A stretch of 37,727 nt of DNA from a virus. How positions within the stretch are numbered: position 1 is the first letter of the stretch; each line of letters begins with the position of its first letter. The DNA is taken from positions 1 through 37,727 of the IMG/VR virus record IMGVR_UViG_3300048848_000022; one strand, 5' to 3'. A program made the position numbers and the translations under genes. Below are positions 1,777-16,757 of the stretch, one piece after another. The notes below the pieces were generated by a model that worked only from the letters and a program-made list of their open reading frames with translations, ran no database searches and was not told where the DNA came from.

Positions 1777-3381
1777 TCACCCATAGAAACCTCCATCGTC
1801 ATGCTCTTCGCGGCTCCTGCTGTAGCGGTCGCTTGGTTTGTTAGTATCTACGATTTCGCTGACCGGAACAATGGCCGGATGCGCCATGTCTAGAGCACGG
1901 CCCATGTTAGACGCCGCGTCAACCTCATCATCATGCTTTCCACCTGGGAACGCGACGTATTCGTTAATGATCTCGTCGCCCTCCATTCCGGCGCGAATAT
2001 AGACCTCACCCATGGTGGCTTTAGCCTGGAATGGTTGAGCCTTGTTCGCCTTATCACCGCCCTGCGTGCTGATCTCTTCGATCCGGCACCTGATTTTATG
2101 CTTGCGCATTGCGGCCCTGACGAATGGAGCTGACGACTTCCAGTTGTTGTCGTTCTCAGGGAACCAGCAAAGAGGCTTCCATTTCTTGATGAGCGGCAAC
2201 GCTCCCTGATCCGCTACCGTTTGTTCGCCGGTTCGCTCGTCCAGCTTGACGCCCATCGCCTTGTCAATCGTTCCCTGGACGCGGTAGCCGTCCACTTCCC
2301 ACAGGTTCTGATCCTTATCGACGCCCCACACCCTAAACACGTTCCAGTCGCTGTCCTGCGTTCCGCCTGGAGCGTGATCGCTCGTCATGTAGTAGTTCAG
2401 GCGGACGGGGCGTTCAGACACTCGATAGCGTTTGAACCAATCGCGCTTAAAGAACGTCCCTTCAGGCGCTGAAGGCTTCTGTTGATAGAGGCTTGTCCAG
2501 GTTCGGTTGTTCTTCTGGAACGGCTTCCAGTGATCTAATGTAAACCATTCTGGCCAAAGGGTTTCTCCGATCTCTCTGCCCAACGGGTCATCATGACGAT
2601 CTGCAATGGCTGGAAGACACACGACGTGCCACACGCGACCATCGCGCCCCTGAAACACGCCAGTCTCACCCGACCATTCTTCCGGCAAAATGCGACCGGC
2701 AGGGTCATCGGCGTGCCAGCGTGTAAGGATCATCACCTGGGGCGCGCCGGGGATCAGGCGGGAGCAGAAGTCATCAACATACGCGTCCCACGTCTTGTCG
2801 CGGATTGTCTGCGATTCTGCGGCCTCACGCCCTCGGATCGGGTCGTCAAGGATGCCAAGCGCCGCCCGGTTGCCAGTCAGTCCAGATAGGATGCCACCCG
2901 CCATGAACTCTGAGCCGTTGCTCATAGCCCACTGATCTACAGCGCTCGTCGTGTTGCTGAGCGTCACGTCCATAAGGCGCTCAAAGCCACGTGACTTGAC
3001 CAGCGTTCTAGCGCGCCTCCCCTGCTTGGCGGCGATGTCCGAGGCGTAGGATGCGAGGATAACGTTGCGGCGCGGCTTGCGGGCCATGTACCAAGGCACG
3101 AACACAACGTCGGCATATGTGGACTTGGCGGACCCTGGCGGCAGCAGCAGCATCAGGTTCGGAACGCTGCCGTCTTCAACGCCCTGTAGCTTGCGTAGAA
3201 CCAGCTCATGGTGCGCCACAAGCTTGCCGAGCTTCATGACGCTGAAGCCGTCCTCGTCGCTCTCGTCGGATAGCGGAACGGTCGGAATATCAACCAGACA
3301 GGCGAAGTCGCAGACGTTGCGCTGAGCCAGCAACTGACGCGCTCGCATGACGTGGGCTGCTGTTATCTCCATCCCCCACAC
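1777..3381 (-). CDS. terL: Terminase large subunit
   Basis: 534 aa. Walker A-like LLLPPGSAKST, Walker B-like GILDDP, C-terminal nuclease-type DDEVDA. The start is uncertain (GTG 3381, ATG 3372 or ATG 3348). Confidence 0.9.
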   Translation of the reverse strand: MWGMEITAAHVMRARQLLAQRNVCDFACLVDIPTVPLSDESDEDGFSVMKLGKLVAHHELVLRKLQGVEDGSVPNLMLLLPPGSAKSTYADVVFVPWYMARKPRRNVILASYASDIAAKQGRRARTLVKSRGFERLMDVTLSNTTSAVDQWAMSNGSEFMAGGILSGLTGNRAALGILDDPIRGREAAESQTIRDKTWDAYVDDFCSRLIPGAPQVMILTRWHADDPAGRILPEEWSGETGVFQGRDGRVWHVVCLPAIADRHDDPLGREIGETLWPEWFTLDHWKPFQKNNRTWTSLYQQKPSAPEGTFFKRDWFKRYRVSERPVRLNYYMTSDHAPGGTQDSDWNVFRVWGVDKDQNLWEVDGYRVQGTIDKAMGVKLDERTGEQTVADQGALPLIKKWKPLCWFPENDNNWKSSAPFVRAAMRKHKIRCRIEEISTQGGDKANKAQPFQAKATMGEVYIRAGMEGDEIINEYVAFPGGKHDDEVDAASNMGRALDMAHPAIVPVSEIVDTNKPSDRYSRSREEHDDGGFYG

Positions 3382-4200: not shown

Positions 4201-4529
4201 GGCTGGGTGGCTTTCGCGATGGCTGCTTTAGCCGCGTCTTGCAGATCAAGGTGTTCATCCGACGCAATGCACCCCGCCTCTTTCTCTGCGTAGGCCAGCA
4301 TACCAATCAGCGCCTCCAGCAAACATGGCGCGGCGGCTATTAGGCGAACGTTGGCTTCATCGACTTTCCAGAAGTCGCGGCGCAACTCTTCCATGTGGGT
4401 GGCAGCCACAACCTTGTGCTGCGGTTGGTCTGGCGACCAGTAGTGGCGCACCTCAAAGCTGACATCGAGGCCGCGCAAGTAGTCGATGCGCTGAACCGCC
4501 CAAGGCCCCGGCGCATGCCCCGCCATCAC
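4197..4529 (-). CDS. Hypothetical protein, 'GPW...ANxRLIAAAPxLLEAL' family (paralog of 11881..12165)
   Basis: MMAGHAPGPW...EANVRLIAAAPCLLEAL; the same motifs occur in the plus-strand gene at 11881. Confidence 0.6.
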   Translation of the reverse strand: MMAGHAPGPWAVQRIDYLRGLDVSFEVRHYWSPDQPQHKVVAATHMEELRRDFWKVDEANVRLIAAAPCLLEALIGMLAYAEKEAGCIASDEHLDLQDAAKAAIAKATQP

Positions 4530-4738
4530 TTACCCCCTCGGGCTGCGAGCATGGCGTCGGCGAGTTCGTAAGCTGTGACGGCGAACTTGTCCTTGTTCGC
4601 CTTGTAGTCTGGATTGGCGCACAGCCCCGTCAGCGCCGCCATAGCGAACTGATCGCGGAGTGTTGGAGCGGAATGGTTTATACCTCCACCCGACCACTCA
4701 ATGCCACCAGGAATGAAACCATCATCTAACATCATCAT
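4526..4738 (-). CDS. Hypothetical protein (~70 aa; ...TLRDQFAMAALTGL...ELADAMLAAR)
   Basis: ORF 4526..4762. A triple ATG at 4738/4735/4732 follows AGAGGAGAG and promoter P4. Confidence 0.6.
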   Translation of the reverse strand: MMMLDDGFIPGGIEWSGGGINHSAPTLRDQFAMAALTGLCANPDYKANKDKFAVTAYELADAMLAARGGK

Positions 4739-4757
4739 CTCTCCTCTTTCTTGCACC

Positions 4758-4785
4758 ACCATACGACAGGATGTGGAATGGTCAA
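4758..4785 (-). promoter_or_regulatory. Promoter P4 of the repeated cassette (TTGACC-N16-TATGGT)
   Basis: Minus strand reads CTTGACCATTCCACATCCTGTCGTATGGTGGTG, then AGAAAGAGGAGAGATG. The stop codon of the MTase lies inside the -35. Confidence 0.55.
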
Positions 4786-5480
4786 GCGGTTTCGTCTAGA
4801 ATGGCCCTCATTAGAGCTTCCGGGATTTGCGAGACAATGGCGTTTCTGAGTGTGTCAGTTCGGTCCACCGATCTTTGAAGCCCATCATCCATTCCTCGAA
4901 GCGCGGAGAGTGCAGCTTTCCAATCTCCGTCTTGCGAAACGGGTTTGAGGAACCGCCCCACTCGTCCAAACGACCCGAGACGTGGTTTTTCCCGTGATTG
5001 CTCGTCCCGCTGGGAGTAGGCAGCAACCCAGACGCGAAGCCGTCTGTGGGGAAGACCAACGGCGGTCGCCGGTATGCAATCCCATTCCGCATCATACCGC
5101 TCGGCGGCCACCTCCCCGAGTATCTCGCAAAGCCCTCGATTGCACAGGGCCGCCACGTTCTCCAGCATGAAGAGCTTTGGTCGAACCAGGCGAACGGCTC
5201 GCATAGCCTCCCGCCACAGTCCTGAACGGGCTCCGGACAATCCGGCGCGCTTGCCAGCGTTGCTGAGGTCTTGGCAAGGGAAACCAGCTGTAACGACATC
5301 TGCATCCGGGAAGTCCTCAACCTTGGTTATGTCTCCAAGGTTTGGCACATCGGGCCAATGCTTCTTGAGGACCGCTGATGGGTATGGCTCGATCTCTGAG
5401 AAGGCGACGGTTTTTACGCCCGCGCGTTCAAGGCCAAGAGCGAAGCCGCCTATTCCACTGAACAGGTCTATTGATCGCAC
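4782..5480 (-). CDS. dcm: DNA (cytosine-5)-methyltransferase (frame A)
   Basis: Motifs I DLFSGIGG, IV GFPCQDLS, VI ENV, VIII GLPHRRLRVW, and X-like LRNAIVSQIP. GTG 5480 with AGAGG 8 nt upstream is the preferred start; the track ORF begins at TTG 5504. Confidence 0.85.
   Translation of the reverse strand: MRSIDLFSGIGGFALGLERAGVKTVAFSEIEPYPSAVLKKHWPDVPNLGDITKVEDFPDADVVTAGFPCQDLSNAGKRAGLSGARSGLWREAMRAVRLVRPKLFMLENVAALCNRGLCEILGEVAAERYDAEWDCIPATAVGLPHRRLRVWVAAYSQRDEQSREKPRLGSFGRVGRFLKPVSQDGDWKAALSALRGMDDGLQRSVDRTDTLRNAIVSQIPEALMRAILDETA
4811..5320 (-). CDS. +1-frame ORF inside the MTase gene encoding a TRD/motif-IX-like peptide (status unclear)
   Basis: ...RWPPSGMMRNGIAYRRPPLVFPTDGFASGLLPTPSG...SPRFEEWMMGFKDRWTEL. 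In-frame ATG 5305 has GAGGA 8 nt upstream. Hand-counted GC3 is higher than in frame A downstream of ~5100. Confidence 0.35.
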   Translation of the reverse strand: MRTSRMQMSLQLVSLAKTSATLASAPDCPEPVQDCGGRLCEPFAWFDQSSSCWRTWRPCAIEGFARYSGRWPPSGMMRNGIAYRRPPLVFPTDGFASGLLPTPSGTSNHGKNHVSGRLDEWGGSSNPFRKTEIGKLHSPRFEEWMMGFKDRWTELTHSETPLSRKSRKL

Positions 5481-5629
5481 TTGATCGCCTCTGGAGAGTA
5501 GCAAGCACCTCCGCCGATTTCGAAAAGATCTCTCGCGGCCTGCGCAGCTTCGGCCATCGTATCAAAGCGACGCTCAATCTGTAGGCCGTTAGCGTCGGTC
5601 CCGTTCAGAGTCCAAACAACCTTGGTCAT
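5468..5629 (-). CDS. Hypothetical protein (53 aa, MTKVVWTLNGTDANGLQIERRF...)
   Basis: ORF 5468..5695. The ATG at 5629 follows the P3 leader GAAGAGGAGGGATTGAG. Confidence 0.6.
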   Translation of the reverse strand: MTKVVWTLNGTDANGLQIERRFDTMAEAAQAARDLFEIGGGACYSPEAIKCDQ

Positions 5630-5653: not shown

Positions 5654-5682
5654 ACCATACCCCCCCCTTTTCCAATGGTCAA
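5654..5682 (-). promoter_or_regulatory. Promoter P3 (TTGACC-N17-TATGGT) with a G8 tract in the spacer
   Basis: Minus strand reads CTTGACCATTGGAAAAGGGGGGGGTATGGTGGAGG. The 8-C run on the plus strand is 5660-5667. This is the only copy with a 17-nt spacer. Confidence 0.55.
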
Positions 5683-5701
5683 GCGCCAATCTCACTCCAG
5701 G

Positions 5702-6184
5702 CTATTCTGCCCTGAAAAACTCTCCGTGCATGGATTTAGCAGCCGCCAAATATGCTTGATAGGCCTCCTCTGGGGAGGCAAACCGGCCTAGCCGATGTAT
5801 CTTTCCGCCGCTCGTAATCTGAGCCCTGTAGCGTCCGCTCTCTTTTTCCAGGTAAACTCCCTTATAGCCGGATGCGTTGTTTTTATGTTTGCGCCTGTTT
5901 TGCATGTTTTGAGAGTGGGTGGCAGTTCTCAGGTTTGACCTTCTGTTGTCTAAACCGTCGCCATTGATGTGGTCGGTCATCATTTTGTCGGGTGTTTTGT
6001 TCACGACCCTGTGCATAAACACCCTATATGTCTTACCGCCGAAATACTCGTATCGAACCGCGTAATTTCTCGAATCGTTGCACGTCACGCTCCATACAAA
6101 TGGAGACACCAAATGGTAATCACTCTCGTCTACCAGTGCGATCAACCCGTTTTTTAGGGGAACTGTTACGGTCTTGTTTTCCAT
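5702..6184 (-). CDS. HNH (HNH_3-type) + AP2-domain homing endonuclease
   Basis: HRVV...DHINGDGLDNRRSNLRTATHSQN (HNH), then SGYKGVYLEKESGRYRAQITSGGKIHRLGRFASPEEAYQAY (AP2). The gene is visibly AT-richer than its flanks. Confidence 0.9.
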   Translation of the reverse strand: MENKTVTVPLKNGLIALVDESDYHLVSPFVWSVTCNDSRNYAVRYEYFGGKTYRVFMHRVVNKTPDKMMTDHINGDGLDNRRSNLRTATHSQNMQNRRKHKNNASGYKGVYLEKESGRYRAQITSGGKIHRLGRFASPEEAYQAYLAAAKSMHGEFFRAE

Positions 6185-6223
6185 AACCCATACGTTCGCA
6201 CATCAATCCGCCCCGGGCAAGCG

Positions 6224-6256
6224 AAAAACCCGGCACCCGAACTAACGGACACCGGG
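6224..6256 (-). terminator. Rho-independent terminator of the P5 transcript
   Basis: Minus strand reads CCCGGUGUCCG-UUAGUU-CGGGUGCCGGG (11 bp including 3 G.U pairs; 6256->6229) followed by UUUUU (6228->6224). It lies 40 nt upstream of the HNH-AP2 ATG. Confidence 0.7.
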
Positions 6257-6412
6257 GCTATGCGAGGCCAGGATTGATACTGGCTGTCCGATCACACTGC
6301 GGTTGCGACCCGCGCCTATTTTCAGATCGGTCATTAGGCGGACTATGCACTTCCATCAGTGCTGCTCGCATTCTCGTTACGATTACTGTGTCCGCAAACC
6401 CCTTTGGGACAC
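6224..6412 (-). ncRNA. Putative ~187-nt structured RNA (5' hairpin, 4-way-junction core, terminator); function unknown
   Basis: Starts ~7 nt after the P5 -10. The 5' hairpin spans 6388-6412. A 7-bp closing stem pairs 6365-6371 with 6260-6266 and encloses hairpins 6347-6362, 6288-6330 (inner 6299-6313) and 6267-6284. It ends at the terminator. It contains only a 37-codon ORF without a usable SD. Confidence 0.45.
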
Positions 6413-6416
6413 CACC

Positions 6417-6444
6417 ACCATACGCGATCAGGCTGGCGGGTCAA
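6417..6444 (-). promoter_or_regulatory. Promoter P5 (TTGACC-N16-TATGGT)
   Basis: Minus strand reads CTTGACCCGCCAGCCTGATCGCGTATGGTGGTGG. The -35 lies in the last codons of the Lar gene. Confidence 0.5.
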
Positions 6445-6634
6445 GGCCGTCCACATTCCAGGCCATTATAGCTCTGTGTTCGTAGTTCTGCATCAGCGGA
6501 CCTCGAGCACGGCATTTGTTGCAAACCACTTGATAGTTGTCCCCAACGCGCCTGTAATTCCCGCGTCGAATCGCATTGCATTTAGCCTTGCCGCCACAAA
6601 ACCGGCACGGCTTGATTTCGACGGTGTCCATCAC
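6428..6634 (-). CDS. lar: Lar-family restriction-alleviation-like zinc-ribbon protein
   Basis: KPCRFCGG...VVCNKCRARGP...AIMAWN matches the Lar pattern (PCPFCG...C..Cga.g...Ai.aWN). Confidence 0.65.
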   Translation of the reverse strand: MMDTVEIKPCRFCGGKAKCNAIRRGNYRRVGDNYQVVCNKCRARGPLMQNYEHRAIMAWNVDGLDPPA

Positions 6635-10124: not shown

Positions 10125-10241
10125 TGAACCTCCTGAACTTTCGCCACAGTGAACAAACTTTCTTTGCGGGTCAAGCCGAAGTTTGAGCTTGCGTGGTTTG
10201 TTTTGTCGTGCGTATATAGGGGAAGAAAGAGGAGAATAATT
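10125..10241. promoter_or_regulatory. Divergent early control region (candidate promoters and operators)
   Basis: Plus strand: TTGCGT (10189-10194)-N18-TATATA (10213-10218), then AGAGGAG and ATG 10242. Minus strand: CTTGACCC (-35 at 10169-10174) with a poor -10. Inverted repeats CAAACTT (10154-10160)/AAGTTTG (10179-10185) and AACAAAC (10152-10158)/GTTTGTT (10196-10202). Confidence 0.45.
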
Positions 10242-10967
10242 ATGACACACGGAAAGAGCGTCGTCGTGCCGTTGTCTGGCGCACCCTACGGCGACGACTT
10301 CCTGCAAGCCATCAACGGCTTTGCAACCGGAGGATCTACGCGCTGCCGTGACGCCATTGAGGAAGCGGGGGCGTCGGTCGCCTTCGGCGCGCTGTCGGGG
10401 GGAGACTATACGATGGTGCTGGCAGAAAAGCAGCCTTTCGAAGCCTTCCCGGCGCTAGCGCAGCATATCGAGCGCATGGCCGTTGGAGGATCTGTCGGGT
10501 CGCTGATCGAGTGGGACGCCTTCCTGCGCGAACTGAACGCCGCCATCGCAGCCGCCCCCGCCCCGTCATCGCTGGCGGGTGGTTCGTTCGGACGGGACCA
10601 AAGCACACTGGCCGACCTGACGCGGACGCTGGAAATGTGCGAGCGCGGAGAGGGTCACAACCCTGAAATGGTCTCGGTCCACGTCTCCACCTTCCGCGAC
10701 CTTCTCGCCGCCCTATCCCCGGAAGCCCCAGCCGAGGGGGCGGGGGAGCTTCTGCCCTGTCCGTTCTGCGGCGAGGATACGGCCAATGCTTATGTATTCG
10801 CCCGCCCCGGCGTCACTGCTTGCGGTGAAAGAGGCAAATGGCACGGGATAAAGTGTCATCACTGCGGAGCGGAAGGCGCCACATCGAACAATGCAGAGAA
10901 GACGGCCCAGATGTGGAACCGACGCGCCCGTTCGTCTGCGCCGGAAGCCCGCGATGCAGCCAATTAA
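10242..10967 (+). CDS. Multi-segment protein with C-terminal Lar-like zinc ribbon; carries linker repeats A, B, C
   Basis: ATG 10242 after AGAGGAG. LLPCPFCGEDT...IKCHHCGAEG...AQMWNRR is Lar-like. The segments are separated by APAPSSLAGG, LSPEAPAEGAGE and RARSSAPEAR. Confidence 0.65.
   Translation: MTHGKSVVVPLSGAPYGDDFLQAINGFATGGSTRCRDAIEEAGASVAFGALSGGDYTMVLAEKQPFEAFPALAQHIERMAVGGSVGSLIEWDAFLRELNAAIAAAPAPSSLAGGSFGRDQSTLADLTRTLEMCERGEGHNPEMVSVHVSTFRDLLAALSPEAPAEGAGELLPCPFCGEDTANAYVFARPGVTACGERGKWHGIKCHHCGAEGATSNNAEKTAQMWNRRARSSAPEARDAAN
10551..10581 (+). repeat. Linker repeat A, copy 1 (31 nt, identical to 17284..17314)
   Basis: ccgcccccgccccgtcatcgctggcgggtgg; encodes (A)PAPSSLAGG; internal CCCGCC/GGCGGG hairpin potential. 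Confidence 0.9.
10705..10749 (+). repeat. Linker repeat B, composite copy 1 (10705-10732 = 17461-17488; 10722-10749 = 17705-17732)
   Basis: tcgccgccctatccccggaagccccagccgagggggcgggggagc; encodes AALSPEAPAEGAGE. Confidence 0.9.
10923..10953 (+). repeat. Linker repeat C, copy 1 (31 nt, identical to 17868..17898)
   Basis: cgcgcccgttcgtctgcgccggaagcccgcg; encodes RARSSAPEAR. Confidence 0.9.
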
Positions 10968-11163: not shown

Positions 11164-11884
11164 TAAGATTGATGGATCGCCAAACATGGCGACGTGGGAA
11201 GCGCTTTGCGTTACGGACCCGGCCCACACAAAGGGCTTCAAGCGGGCCGGGGGCTTCTCAGGGACGGCGGTTAAGCCGCAATGGGTGGTGCGCCGCCTTA
11301 CGGAACATTTTGGCGCTGTTGGCGTCGGCTGGGGCATGGGTGAGCCGTCGTTCCAGATCGTTCCGACAGGACAGGAAGTCCTTGTCTTCTGCAAAGTCAG
11401 CGCGTGGCACACTGATGAGACTAACGTGTTCTGGGGCGTCGGCGGCGATAAGGTGGCTGTGCAGCGTCAGTCTGGTATGTTCACCGACGACGAGGCCTTC
11501 AAGAAGGCATACACCGACGCCGTCATGAACGCCTTCAAGTTCCTGGGTGTGGCCGCTGACGTTCATATGGGTCTGTTTGACGACAACAAGTATGTGGCGG
11601 AGGCTAAGGAGGCCTTTGCCCAGCCCAAGAATCCCACCGTTTCTGTCCAGCCTGAGGGTTTGGACTGGTACGGGGCTTCTGGAACCGGAATGTCGGCCTA
11701 CGCGGCCAAGCAGAAGAAGCTTGATGTCGTTCATGACCAGTGGCGGCAGGAGATTGCTTCTATTCCCACAACGGAAGCATTGCAGGTATGGGCCAGAAAC
11801 CATGATGAAGAAATCAAGGCCCTCCCTTGGTCTTGGCGCGTGGAGATTCGCGAAGAGTGGGACGCACGAAAGGCAGAGCTATGA
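11156..11884 (+). CDS. Single-strand annealing protein, Rad52/Sak-like
   Basis: ATG 11156 after AGAGAGGAGAAG. VKPQWVVRRLTEHFGAVGVGWG...DEAFKKAYTDAVMNAFKFLGVAADVHMGLFDDNKY is typical of Rad52-fold phage recombinases. Confidence 0.65.
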   Translation: MSDKIDGSPNMATWEALCVTDPAHTKGFKRAGGFSGTAVKPQWVVRRLTEHFGAVGVGWGMGEPSFQIVPTGQEVLVFCKVSAWHTDETNVFWGVGGDKVAVQRQSGMFTDDEAFKKAYTDAVMNAFKFLGVAADVHMGLFDDNKYVAEAKEAFAQPKNPTVSVQPEGLDWYGASGTGMSAYAAKQKKLDVVHDQWRQEIASIPTTEALQVWARNHDEEIKALPWSWRVEIREEWDARKAEL

Positions 11885-12165
11885 GCGGCCATACAAAAGG
11901 GCCTTGGTTCCTTGAGGGTGAGGGTGACTTCCGCGAAATCAGCGCGCCTGAACATCAGGCACTCGCCCGCGTCGTCTGGCAGATGGAAGACGACCGTATT
12001 TGCGGAGAAAGCTCACCGACACAGGAAGCCAACGCCCGCCTGATAGTCGCCTCTCCCGATATGCTGCACGCCCTCCGCCTAGTTCGCGCTTCGACAGAAT
12101 GGGCCTGTATGGAATCCTCAACGCAAGACGCTGTTTTGGCAGCAATTAACAAGGCAGAGCTATGA
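11881..12165 (+). CDS. Hypothetical protein, 'GPW...ANARLIxAxPDMLxAL' family (paralog of 4197..4529)
   Basis: MSGHTKGPWF...EANARLIVASPDMLHAL; ATGA overlap with the recombinase stop. Confidence 0.6.
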   Translation: MSGHTKGPWFLEGEGDFREISAPEHQALARVVWQMEDDRICGESSPTQEANARLIVASPDMLHALRLVRASTEWACMESSTQDAVLAAINKAEL

Positions 12166-12808: not shown

Positions 12809-13207
12809 GTGACCGACCAGATAACTCTAGCCCTGACTTCTTCGGATGTCAGGGCGAAAGCCGTTAAATGGTGTCAGGGATGCTCTGACGGCACGCGGGT
12901 TACGTTTGAGGGGCCTAAGCGGTCCTTAGACCAGAATGCGGCTATGCACGCGGCTCTAGCCGACATTGCCAAGCAGAAAGACTATCACGGGATTAAGCTA
13001 TCAACGGACGATTGGAAGTTGGTGTTCCTTGACGCGCTGATACGTGAGGTGCGCGTCGTGCCGAACCTGGCTGGTAATGGCTTTGTTAGCCTTGGCCGGT
13101 CGTCCTCACGCCTTAGCAAGCAGGAGTTTAGCGATCTGCTGGATCTGATCTATGCGTGGGGCGCTCAACATGGCGTCGAGTTCCGCGATCCTAGGCCGCC
13201 TCAATAA
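12809..13207 (+). CDS. ninB: NinB/Orf recombination mediator
   Basis: KRSLDQNAAMHA...DDWKLVFLDAL...VVPNLAGNGFVSLGRSSSRLSKQEFSDLLDLIYAWGAQHGV is near-collinear with lambda Orf (RSLDQN...VVPNLAGNGFVVIGQSTSRM). GTG start. Confidence 0.9.
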   Translation: MTDQITLALTSSDVRAKAVKWCQGCSDGTRVTFEGPKRSLDQNAAMHAALADIAKQKDYHGIKLSTDDWKLVFLDALIREVRVVPNLAGNGFVSLGRSSSRLSKQEFSDLLDLIYAWGAQHGVEFRDPRPPQ

Positions 13208-13547
13208 CGATGTGGACGCACGCACCAGGGCCGCTAGGACGACCTGACCACCGAGCCACTATCTCCATGCATTCGCTGTCGTCCCTGACCACGCCACAGG
13301 CTACTAGCGCATCCTCAGGCCCCTTGATGTAGTTCGACAGGTCGCGTTCTGCTTTTGACGGGCGGTCAAACGAAAGCGACATACGATAAGGACCGAGAAT
13401 CGCTTCCCGGCCCTCCATGTATTTTTTTATTTCTGGCTCTGCGATCTTGCGCCACTTTCGGTAAGCGGCCCCCATGATCTTCCGGCCCCGCACAACCGTG
13501 AACATATGATTCCCAGTCGGGGGCATAGGGAGTGAAAGCTTAATCAC
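13191..13547 (-). CDS. rusA: RusA-type Holliday-junction resolvase
   Basis: GTG 13547 after GGAGGAGG. LSLPMPPTGNHMF...AERDLSNYIKGPEDALVACGVVRDDSE matches RusA (LP.PPS.N...RRDLDN..Ka..DAL...DD). Its 3' end overlaps ninB tail-to-tail by 17 nt. Confidence 0.8.
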   Translation of the reverse strand: MIKLSLPMPPTGNHMFTVVRGRKIMGAAYRKWRKIAEPEIKKYMEGREAILGPYRMSLSFDRPSKAERDLSNYIKGPEDALVACGVVRDDSECMEIVARWSGRPSGPGACVHIVIEAA

Positions 13548-14973: not shown

Positions 14974-15001
14974 TTGACCATAACTCGGGCCGGTGTATGG
15001 T
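14974..15001 (+). promoter_or_regulatory. Promoter P1 (TTGACC-N16-TATGGT)
   Basis: CTTGACCATAACTCGGGCCGGTGTATGGTTGAGG followed by GGAAGAGGAGAGATTGAGATG (15029). Confidence 0.55.
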
Positions 15002-16548: not shown

Positions 16549-16733
16549 CTACCCCAACCAACAACATCCACAAGCGCGGTTTCGCCAGCATGGACAAGGA
16601 CCGACTGCGGGAGGTCTCAAGCAAGGCCGGTGCGGCTGTTCCTGCTCATAAACGCTCGTTCGCAAAAGACCCGGAACTGGCAAAACGTGCCGGGGCTTTG
16701 GGTGGTGCAAAGAAGCTGGATAAAGACGCTTGA
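16545..16733 (+). CDS. KGG-repeat (YciG-like) stress-protein homolog
   Basis: KRGFASMDKDRLREVSSKAG...KRSFAKDPELAKRAGALGG fits the KGG-motif repeat (RGFASMD...SKGG...F..D.e.A.eAG.KGG). Confidence 0.5.
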   Translation: MTTPTNNIHKRGFASMDKDRLREVSSKAGAAVPAHKRSFAKDPELAKRAGALGGAKKLDKDA

Positions 16734-16757
16734 CCATAACCATGCGTGGTGTATGGT
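16730..16757 (+). promoter_or_regulatory. Promoter P2 (TTGACC-N16-TATGGT)
   Basis: CTTGACCATAACCATGCGTGGTGTATGGTTTGG, then AGAAGAGGAGAGAGAGATG (16780). The stop codon of the upstream gene lies inside the -35. Confidence 0.55.

Follow-up and report, generated by a model that had tools for sequence, protein, structure and literature searches.

A structured phage RNA with a putative tRNA-like core and homologues in more than 130 phage contigs

Introduction

What does a phage keep in a gap of 243 bp between two genes? We address this question for IMG/VR virus record IMGVR_UViG_3300048848_000022, a stretch of 37,727 nucleotides (the window, by which we mean the whole DNA that was analysed) that is the genome of a P22-like podovirus, with a portal protein of the P22_portal family, a capsid protein, TerL, an endolysin and a tailspike. 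The gap (6185–6427) has a Lar-family open reading frame (ORF) on one side and an endonuclease ORF with HNH_3 and AP2 domains on the other. A preliminary description of this DNA had placed a unit for a structured RNA in the gap and had offered three readings of it: an abundant phage small RNA (sRNA), a leader resembling lambda PR′/6S, and a cis-regulator that keeps the endonuclease silent. We find that the gap is indeed not empty. It holds a promoter, a folded RNA and a terminator, and homologues of the RNA occur in more than 130 phage contigs altogether. Below we set out the unit, the comparison with relatives that supports its structure, its likeness to tRNA, and the explanations that this evidence favours and disfavours.

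Results

A promoter and a terminator bracket a folded RNA

The unit is read from the minus strand, which carries every gene surrounding it, and comprises the following features in order of transcription.

6417–6444, minus strand: promoter of the sigma-70 type, with −35 TTGACC at 6444–6439, a 16-nt spacer and −10 TATGGT at 6422–6417
6388–6412, minus strand: 5′ leader hairpin of 10 bp with a GGGG loop; other sequence replaces it in relatives
6373–6387, minus strand: leader motif AGUAAUCGUAACGAG, with the consensus AGUAAGCGUAAC (here 6387–6376)
6365–6371, minus strand: 5′ strand of the closing stem, AUGCGAG, 7 bp, acceptor-stem-like
6347–6362, minus strand: P1 hairpin, GCACU-GAUGGA-AGUGC, 2 nt (CA, 6364–6363) past the closing stem, in the D-arm position
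6285–6346, minus strand: variable cargo domain of 62 nt, whose sequence and fold differ among relatives
6267–6284, minus strand: P3 hairpin, GCCAG-UAUCAAUC-CUGGC, T-arm-like, abutting the 3′ strand of the closing stem with no spacer
6260–6266, minus strand: 3′ strand of the closing stem, CUCGCAU
6224–6256, minus strand: intrinsic terminator with an 11-bp stem and a 6-nt loop (6256–6229), then U5 (6228–6224)

The sigma-70-type site (6444..6417) and the terminator bracket the fold, in agreement with the promoter-to-terminator unit proposed earlier, and the predicted primary transcript would be about 187 nt long (~6410 to 6224). The 11-bp terminator stem with U5 was borne out; the end of the U-run lies 39 nt from the ATG of the endonuclease gene. 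Folding of 6412..6220 reproduced the proposed structure, namely the 5′ hairpin, the closing stem AUGCGAG/CUCGCAU, the hairpins at 6362–6347 and 6284–6267, a branched middle and the terminator. This fold had a z-score of −2.31, with 4/200 shuffles equally stable, and the stability of the whole 243-nt gap was no better than that of its shuffles (z = −1.08). Thermodynamic stability is therefore weak evidence by itself, and it is the comparison with relatives that carries the case.

The minus strand has three small ORFs (30, 37 and 37 codons) that overlap the unit, where a single internal ORF of 37 codons had been counted before, and one of the three begins upstream of the promoter. In relatives, the frames are broken by indels that are not multiples of three and by different middles. 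Because no reading frame survives these differences, we regard the unit as non-coding and rejected a small protein-coding gene.

Close relatives keep the core and exchange its middle

Close relatives were retrieved with the neighbouring protein and with short DNA patterns. We obtained five homologous close units: L002 (the same contig as L004; IMG/VR), L006 (Logan), L013 (a 38.8-kb contig binned in a metagenome-assembled genome) and L017 (a metagenome contig with one full unit and a second, partial copy). Further 18-mer matches (L003, L009–L012, L014–L016 and L018) were found on inspection to be chance matches inside genes and were discarded.

In L002, the closest relative, the 34-nt promoter block CTTGACCCGCCAGCCTGATCGCGTATGGTGGTGG is identical to that of the window, the 5′ hairpin is replaced, the block AGUAAGCGUAACGAGAAUGCGAGC is kept, the middle has diverged with its length constant, and the sequence from P3 through the terminator is again identical. 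Over the five units, a 33-nt stretch (CCTCGCATAGCCCCGGTGTCCGTTAGTTCGG) is invariant and the middle occurs in three unrelated versions. The closing stem and the hairpins at 6347–6362 and 6267–6284 are kept in relatives, but the 5′ hairpin and the shape of the middle are not. Because it is replaced, the 5′ hairpin (6388–6412) falls outside the conserved RNA, the core of which is 6371–6260 on the minus strand.

The two copies in L017 depart from this pattern. The partial copy (10489–10581) retains the leader motif, the 5′ strand of the closing helix and an 8-bp P1 hairpin, and forms the 5′ untranslated region of a 78-aa ORF (10565–10801). In the full unit (11965–12134), the P3 hairpin and the consensus of the P1 loop are lost, and an 82-aa ORF lies between promoter and core.

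The RNA is shared by more than 100 further phage loci

A divergent copy in L019 revealed the essential parts of the RNA, and the next patterns were built on its two hairpin loops. These loop patterns retrieved IMG/VR members L021–L025, L028 and L029, and blastn added the Komagataeibacter phages phiKX1 and phiKX2, the Caulobacter phage DMCA and the Acidovorax phage AP1; in these phages the RNA always lies in an unannotated gap. With the 1.1-kb region of the window as query, blastn gave no match among 50,697 phage records. The pattern of a final scan specified the loops and a few adjoining bases only and allowed any sequence in the stems. At least 120 contigs matched, compared with ~11 expected by chance on a rough estimate.

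We then built a covariance model, R1, from 15 members, the window copy among them. R1 matched the window at 6375..6256 with 89.9 bits and E = 7e-19, as expected of a seed member, and found no second copy there. It also matched at E ≤ 6.8e-6 in 100/100 further loci searched. The RNA is a member of a large family in phages of alpha- and beta-proteobacteria. The family scaffold consists of a closing helix of 7–8 bp, C plus a purine, the 5-bp P1 hairpin with a GAAGGA or GAUGGA loop, a cargo of 52–94 nt, an invariant A, the P3 hairpin GCNNG-UAUCAAGC-CNNGC and, without a spacer, the 3′ strand of the closing helix. The window copy has every feature of the R1 family (7–8 bp helix, C+R, GAWGGA loop, UAUCAAKC loop).

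Five loci (L054, L077, L078, L080 and L096) each carry two copies detected by R1. Four of these pairs are in tandem, and the two copies in L078 have the same closing helix and different variable domains. The pairs lie at 1701–1832 and 1914–2038 (L078), 11485–11608 and 11626–11777 (L096), 5067–5191 and 5213–5336 (L077), 13035–13111 and 13135–13272 (L080), and 4355–4522 and 4781–4915 (L054).

Two other recurrent elements were seen near members. A hairpin with the common loop UGGAAGC accompanies the RNA in two unrelated cultured phages, upstream in one and downstream in the other: GCGGG-UGGAAGC-CCCGC in phiKX1 (L030, ~335–360) and GCAGG-UGGAAGC-CCUGC in AP1 (L032, ~3190–3215). Non-coding stretches of 380–640 bp follow TerL (and HNH) genes in L027 (8374–8850), L019 (7134–7777), L020 (9095–9475) and L007 (11037–11457); those of L007, L019 and L020 share conserved blocks and T-arm-like pieces.

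Covariation supports the closing stem, P1 and P3

In the first set of 15 sequences, the extraction of which required partial pairing, 96.5% of cells in the proposed stems were paired, compared with 31–41% when the partners were slid by 1–3 columns. Both sides had changed in 12/17 pairs, and the covariation score was 0.48, compared with 0.16 for shuffled data, in which 0/500 shuffles reached 0.48. Closing helices of unrelated sequence were nevertheless fully paired, for example GCUGCGG/CCGCAGC in phiKX1 and CACAUCGGGAG/CUCCCGAUGUG in AP1.

We then examined 112 further distinct scaffolds, with stems that lay outside the search pattern and with the best-pairing pattern match scored for each locus. 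Closing pairs 1–7 were paired in 88–99% of these and included all four Watson–Crick types; P1 was paired in 97–99% and P3 in 99–100%. Pairing fell to 77% at closing pair 8, and pairs 9–11 (40–55%) were close to the slid controls (33–47%). G.U was tolerated and A.C was almost absent, which indicates selection on the RNA of this strand. Both loops, GAWGGA and UAUCAAGC, were invariant. Three of the helices proposed initially, the closing stem, P1 and P3, thus have the support of covariation in homologues, and we have hardly any doubt that this is a real conserved structured RNA.

The cargo behaves differently. It typically folds into 1–2 hairpins, with a median z-score of −0.64. The best duplex of the window cargo with an antisense target in the window had −56.6 kcal/mol, compared with −50.5 to −57.0 for shuffled cargo, and an antisense sRNA against the phage's own genes was rejected because this is no better than shuffled sequence.

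The core resembles the acceptor, D and T parts of tRNA

The core has roughly the geometry of the acceptor, D and T parts of tRNA, and shares these features with the tRNA-like domains of YrlA and tmRNA: a terminal helix of 7–8 bp, a 2-nt spacer, a hairpin with GG in its loop, and a 5-bp, G-C-closed hairpin with a UUCAAGC-like loop that abuts the helix. In the 112 scaffolds, P3 follows with zero spacer, and the acceptor/T-like stack amounts to 7+5 = 12 bp. A 12-bp acceptor/T stack is what tRNA-measuring enzymes read (background: PMC4919913). The P3 loop UAUCAAGC equals the T loop UUCAAGC with one additional A, and the P1 loop GAWGGA, which has an invariant GG, is only 6 nt long and sits on a stem of 5 bp. 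The base that follows the 7-bp stem has a discriminator-like distribution (A 48, G 25, C 15, U 15), and the one before the stem is mostly U.

Two further observations bear on the likeness to tRNA. An element in L027 is cross-matched by R1 and scored as tRNA by Rfam (38.9 bits), with a 39-nt insert instead of the anticodon arm, and is missed by ARAGORN. In L022 (2049–2116) and L024 (4028–4101), the cargo in turn is a tRNA-like cloverleaf, its anticodon loop being 6 nt long (Rfam tRNA 41.4 bits; ARAGORN 'tRNA-???'), such that a tRNA-like fold is nested within a tRNA-like scaffold.

YrlA, which is known from more than 250 bacteria and phages (PMC4201824), is similar in combining a conserved module with a non-decoding remainder. 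YrlA RNA, however, ends in a Ro-binding stem and not in an acceptor-like one, and its model (RF02553) gave no match in the window even at E ≤ 10. The tmRNA model did not detect the window RNA either. We found no TROVE domain, as in Ro60, in the large window ORFs scanned and no such neighbour cluster in 122 loci.

The RNA is not matched by known RNA families

No known RNA family had been recognised in this RNA before, and an Rfam scan led to the same result. With Rfam 15 at gathering thresholds, the entire window gave no match; at E ≤ 10, region 6100–6500 gave only unrelated matches with E > 2. Among 12 related loci, the gathering threshold returned only true tRNAs and the tRNA-like cargo, and three members searched at E ≤ 10 gave only unrelated weak matches. 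Default ARAGORN called 0 tRNA or tmRNA genes in the window. The literature on the loop sequences and on tRNA-like RNAs upstream of terminase genes yielded nothing specific; an unnamed listing is possible in the supplements of a 2023 virome catalogue whose candidate viral RNAs number ~10,000 (PMC10690425). Phage structured RNAs and tRNA mimics are already known; it is the architecture and spread of this family, absent from Rfam 15, that appear to be new.

Members lie near terminase genes or among accessory genes

In the window, the RNA has replication and TerS genes on one side and TerL on the other. The genes concerned are the following.

7065–6631, minus strand: gp3-like ORF of the small terminase type
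6634–6428, minus strand: Lar-family ORF (Pfam Lar_restr_allev)
6184–5702, minus strand: endonuclease ORF (HNH_3+AP2)
3381–1777, minus strand: TerL

Neighbours of the family were grouped by all-against-all clustering over 122 loci. The large terminase was the only widely recurrent one; its median position is +1.6 kb, downstream and on the same strand, with TerS at +0.8 kb and the portal gene at +2.8 kb. A packaging gene is present within 4 kb in 36/91 loci having at least 2.5 kb of downstream sequence. Among the largest downstream ORFs, ~27/73 encode TerL, portal or capsid proteins, and the rest include methylases, UDG, ThyA, PolA, RecT, integrase and GemA.

The cultured phages show other arrangements. 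In phiKX1 and phiKX2, the order is integrase, tRNA-Met, RNA, terminator and convergent genes. The RNA of DMCA has a transposase gene on one side and a convergent integrase gene on the other, with a terminator after the RNA. A tRNA gene is present in 18/107 loci and lies ≤500 nt from the RNA in 11 of these 18. The RNA thus occupies sites where phage tRNA and other accessory genes accumulate.

The window terminator is common only to window-type phages, and other members have different terminators or none. The flanks of members had no enriched 8-mers, i.e. no common promoter or terminator motif. The RNA of L029 is preceded, at a distance of ~10 nt, by a TTGAAA-17-TATGAT promoter. A terminator or ribosome-binding site is separate from the closing stem in phiKX1, DMCA and L029, and in the window the minimum-free-energy fold contains both the closing stem, which extends to 6260, and the terminator, which starts at 6256. 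Because adjacent terminators and ribosome-binding sites never overlap the closing helix, a riboswitch-type geometry is ruled out, and we rejected a terminator riboswitch.

The endonuclease gene is a later insertion outside the RNA unit

The endonuclease gene lies directly after the RNA terminator and before the next promoter cassette, on a segment of its own.

5692–6203, minus strand: insertion of ~0.5 kb with the HNH_3+AP2 gene only, flanked by GATTG at 6208–6204 and 5691–5687; outside the RNA unit

In L002, which shares the promoter, RNA and terminator but has no HNH-AP2 gene, the terminator leads into the next promoter cassette (GCGATTGGCGCTTGACC) and then a C5-methylase gene. L017 is arranged like L002 and also lacks the insertion. 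Because the junction seen in L002 and L017 is split by the insertion in the window, the RNA is older than the nuclease and also occurs in its absence. The gene has no promoter cassette of its own, and its expression would therefore need read-through of the terminator. As a side observation, the adjacent invariant block of RNA and terminator could be the homing target of the nuclease.

The unit uses one of five promoter cassettes

The sequence TTGACC-N14–19-TATGGT has 5 matches in the window, compared with 0.01 expected. In the form TTGACC-N16/17-gTATGGT these are the following.

4758–4785, minus strand: promoter cassette
5654–5682, minus strand: promoter cassette
6417–6444, minus strand: promoter cassette of the RNA unit
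14974–15001, plus strand: promoter cassette
16730–16757, plus strand: promoter cassette

Four of the five are followed within ~15–20 nt by a near-identical strong ribosome-binding cassette (AGAGGAGAGAT..ATG) and an ORF; the copy at 6444 is the only one with non-coding sequence downstream. The cassettes look like portable expression modules at which mosaic relatives recombine, and cassettes of the same kind are also found in L002, L013 and L017.

The motif AGUAAGCGUAAC repeats downstream of this promoter type in window-type phages, with one copy before an ORF in each of L017 and L013. It is found once in DMCA, directly 3′ of the RNA core of that phage, and is absent from the flanks of the remaining family members. 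One idea is that it serves as a loading site for an elongation factor.

Two observations concern other genes of the window. A C5 cytosine methylase gene (4782–5504, minus strand) contains a second long ORF in a different frame (4811–5320, minus strand). This second-frame ORF is kept in L002, where the two ORFs lie at 4272–5096 and 4483–5061, and the motifs LPTP(T/S) and MGF(P/K)D(S/R)WTEL are common to both, which suggests a frameshifted or dual-coding gene and not a simple pseudogene. A second Lar-like domain (PHROG 599, E = 5e-11) is found at residues 198–264 of a plus-strand ORF at 10149–10967. This ORF overlaps minus-strand ORFs in a region otherwise read from the minus strand, and gene calls around it therefore need care.

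Discussion

What kind of RNA fills the gap? Of the readings offered at first, the abundant phage sRNA comes closest to the evidence, with the addition of a tRNA-like core; its abundance is a prediction. We read the unit as an independently transcribed gene for a stable structured non-coding RNA that acts in trans as a mimic of the tRNA core, an interpretation that, taken as a whole, we put a little below an even chance. Its parts differ in strength. That the unit is a stand-alone gene is very probable. That the RNA mimics the tRNA core is somewhat more probable than the contrary; because several features differ from tRNA and the standard detectors fail, this is a likeness that we infer. That it serves in trans as a decoy or adaptor is a possibility to which we give distinctly less than an even chance. 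An obligatory cis role is disfavoured, and action in trans favoured, because there are members without an operon and tandem copies with different cargo and because the window unit has its own promoter and terminator.

On this interpretation, the RNA would work as a decoy or adaptor and not in decoding. Factors that read the tRNA elbow and acceptor end may bind it, such as RNase P, the CCA-adding enzyme or a host defence or stress protein directed at tRNA, and RNase P would probably trim the leader. The freely evolving domain of 52–94 nt would take the place of the anticodon arm and may be inert or may act as a specificity module. A bolder proposal, which we hold to be doubtful, is that the family forms an uncatalogued, widespread class of modular decoys or adaptors, with a constant acceptor/D/T elbow as a handle and an exchangeable cargo. 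Such RNAs might titrate away or divert a tRNA-recognising host factor, of which an anti-phage toxin directed at the acceptor ends of tRNAs would be one example, or might instead tether a partner protein to a nuclease in the manner of Y RNA.

Several observations weigh against a tRNA-like RNA acting in trans. Neither the Rfam tRNA model (at the gathering threshold and at E ≤ 10) nor default ARAGORN calls the window RNA; only relaxed, intron-allowing ARAGORN uses the closing stem as an acceptor, and this setting also makes false calls on the opposite strand. The T-like loop is 8 nt long instead of 7, the D-like arm combines a 5-bp stem with a loop of 6 nt, position 8 is occupied by C and not U, no CCA is encoded after the stem, the closing helix is often 8 bp or longer, and the anticodon arm is missing, with the variable domain in its place. 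Some loop and junction positions of the 112 scaffolds were fixed by the search pattern, such that part of the loop invariance is imposed. No gene other than terminase co-occurs consistently over the 122 loci, and no partner protein was found. About 40% of members have packaging genes 0.5–3 kb downstream on the same strand, which would also fit a cis role in a late operon, and in L028, L029 and L023 the RNA leads directly into a ribosome-binding site and an ORF.

Such a cis role at the head of the packaging operon is the main rival, which we consider unlikely yet serious. The RNA would be the leader of a packaging or late operon, either modifying RNA polymerase while nascent (put-like antitermination) or serving as a tRNA-like processing or stability signal upstream of terminase; in the window, transcription from 6444 would pass the terminator at 6256–6224 into the HNH, methylase and TerL genes. 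This agrees with the place of the window RNA between replication/TerS genes and TerL, with terminase as the commonest same-strand downstream neighbour (the 36/91 loci above), and with L029, in which a promoter precedes the RNA closely and an ORF follows, as one does in L028 and L023. However, in phiKX1, phiKX2 and DMCA the RNA closes a transcription unit and has no downstream operon, tandem copies carry different cargo, over half of the members are not beside recognisable packaging genes, the downstream genes of the window have their own promoter cassettes at 5682 and 4785, and the fold of the RNA depends on a long-range closing stem, in which it differs from put with its two adjacent hairpins. 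The lambda-like leader suggested at first thus fits the layout of promoter and terminator in the window but fails for the family, given the same three phages. A functionless by-product of a late promoter, arising like lambda 6S where transcription stops at a regulated terminator, is more improbable by far. The window does resemble lambda PR′-tR′ in having a constitutive-looking promoter, a terminator ~187 nt on (~190 nt in this comparison) and late genes beyond, between early and late genes. A mere by-product is nonetheless disfavoured because it would not keep invariant loops and compensated stems, which here persist in more than 130 distant phages, many of them without an adjacent terminator or a downstream operon. 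Moreover, the ORFs tested upstream of the unit (Lar, gp3-like and a 103-aa protein without a match) include none that matches the Q family, even though promoter and terminator are present.

A DNA-level element, i.e. a cos/pac or terminase-binding site, an attP-related sequence or a homing-endonuclease target, would account for the proximity to terminase genes in many phages and to integrase in three cultured ones, and for the 33-nt block that is 100% identical in window-type phages and adjoins the insertion point of the endonuclease. We find it very unlikely: the stems change in a compensatory manner around constant loops, tolerance of G.U with near absence of A.C is a signature of RNA and not of duplex DNA, the orientation equals that of the flanking genes in the loci examined, and promoters and terminators bracket several members. 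Least credible of all are a dedicated cis-regulator that silences the HNH-AP2 endonuclease and a small protein-coding gene. The nuclease gene does start 39 nt past the terminator without a promoter cassette, and ORFs of 30–37 codons do overlap the unit. Yet L002 and L017 keep RNA and terminator without the nuclease gene, which is a 0.5-kb GATTG-flanked insertion, and >130 family members lie in contexts of other kinds, so the silencing role suggested earlier does not hold; the ORF frames, for their part, are not conserved, and one starts upstream of the promoter.

Known phage RNAs offer partial parallels. The RNA described here shares with phi29 pRNA a helix junction, the pairing of the 5′ end with the 3′ end into a helix, and a pair of hairpins whose loops are conserved, and it often lies near packaging genes. 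The hallmark of pRNA is complementarity between its two loops, which leads to ring formation. Here, GAWGGA and UAUCAAGC are complementary over at most 2–3 bases, so pRNA-like loop–loop pairing was rejected, and the phages have TerS/TerL packaging systems. GOLLD and ROOL are carried by phages, occur close to tRNA genes and contain a variable region with tRNA-like sequence in some members; they differ in exceeding 500 nt and in being in Rfam, and neither matches the window or the related loci searched with Rfam. Genes of tRNA are similar in their placement, the RNA being found where phage tRNA genes sit. The put RNA of HK022 (PMC9378689) is likewise a phage RNA that is at times near a promoter and could act without a phage protein. 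It measures ~70 nt, has two adjacent stem-loops and no closing helix, and acts in cis on a downstream operon (PMC9378689). The RNA here, in contrast, is a multi-helix junction closed by its own 5′ and 3′ ends with a variable insert, and there is no similarity in sequence or model. Given this architecture and the members without a downstream operon, we rejected membership in the put family.

The >130 covarying sequences are a ready seed for a covariance model, which would annotate a recurrent 'empty' gap upstream of terminase genes. Carriers with tractable hosts are at hand in DMCA (Caulobacter CB15), the Komagataeibacter phages phiKX1 and phiKX2 and the Acidovorax phage AP1. If our interpretation is true, it would be common for phages of alpha- and beta-proteobacteria to have a compact RNA reduced to that portion of tRNA which is read by processing enzymes and by tRNA-directed defence or stress proteins. 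This would bring a new RNA class into the current discussion of the reasons for tRNA carriage by phages and of their ways around tRNA-targeting immunity.

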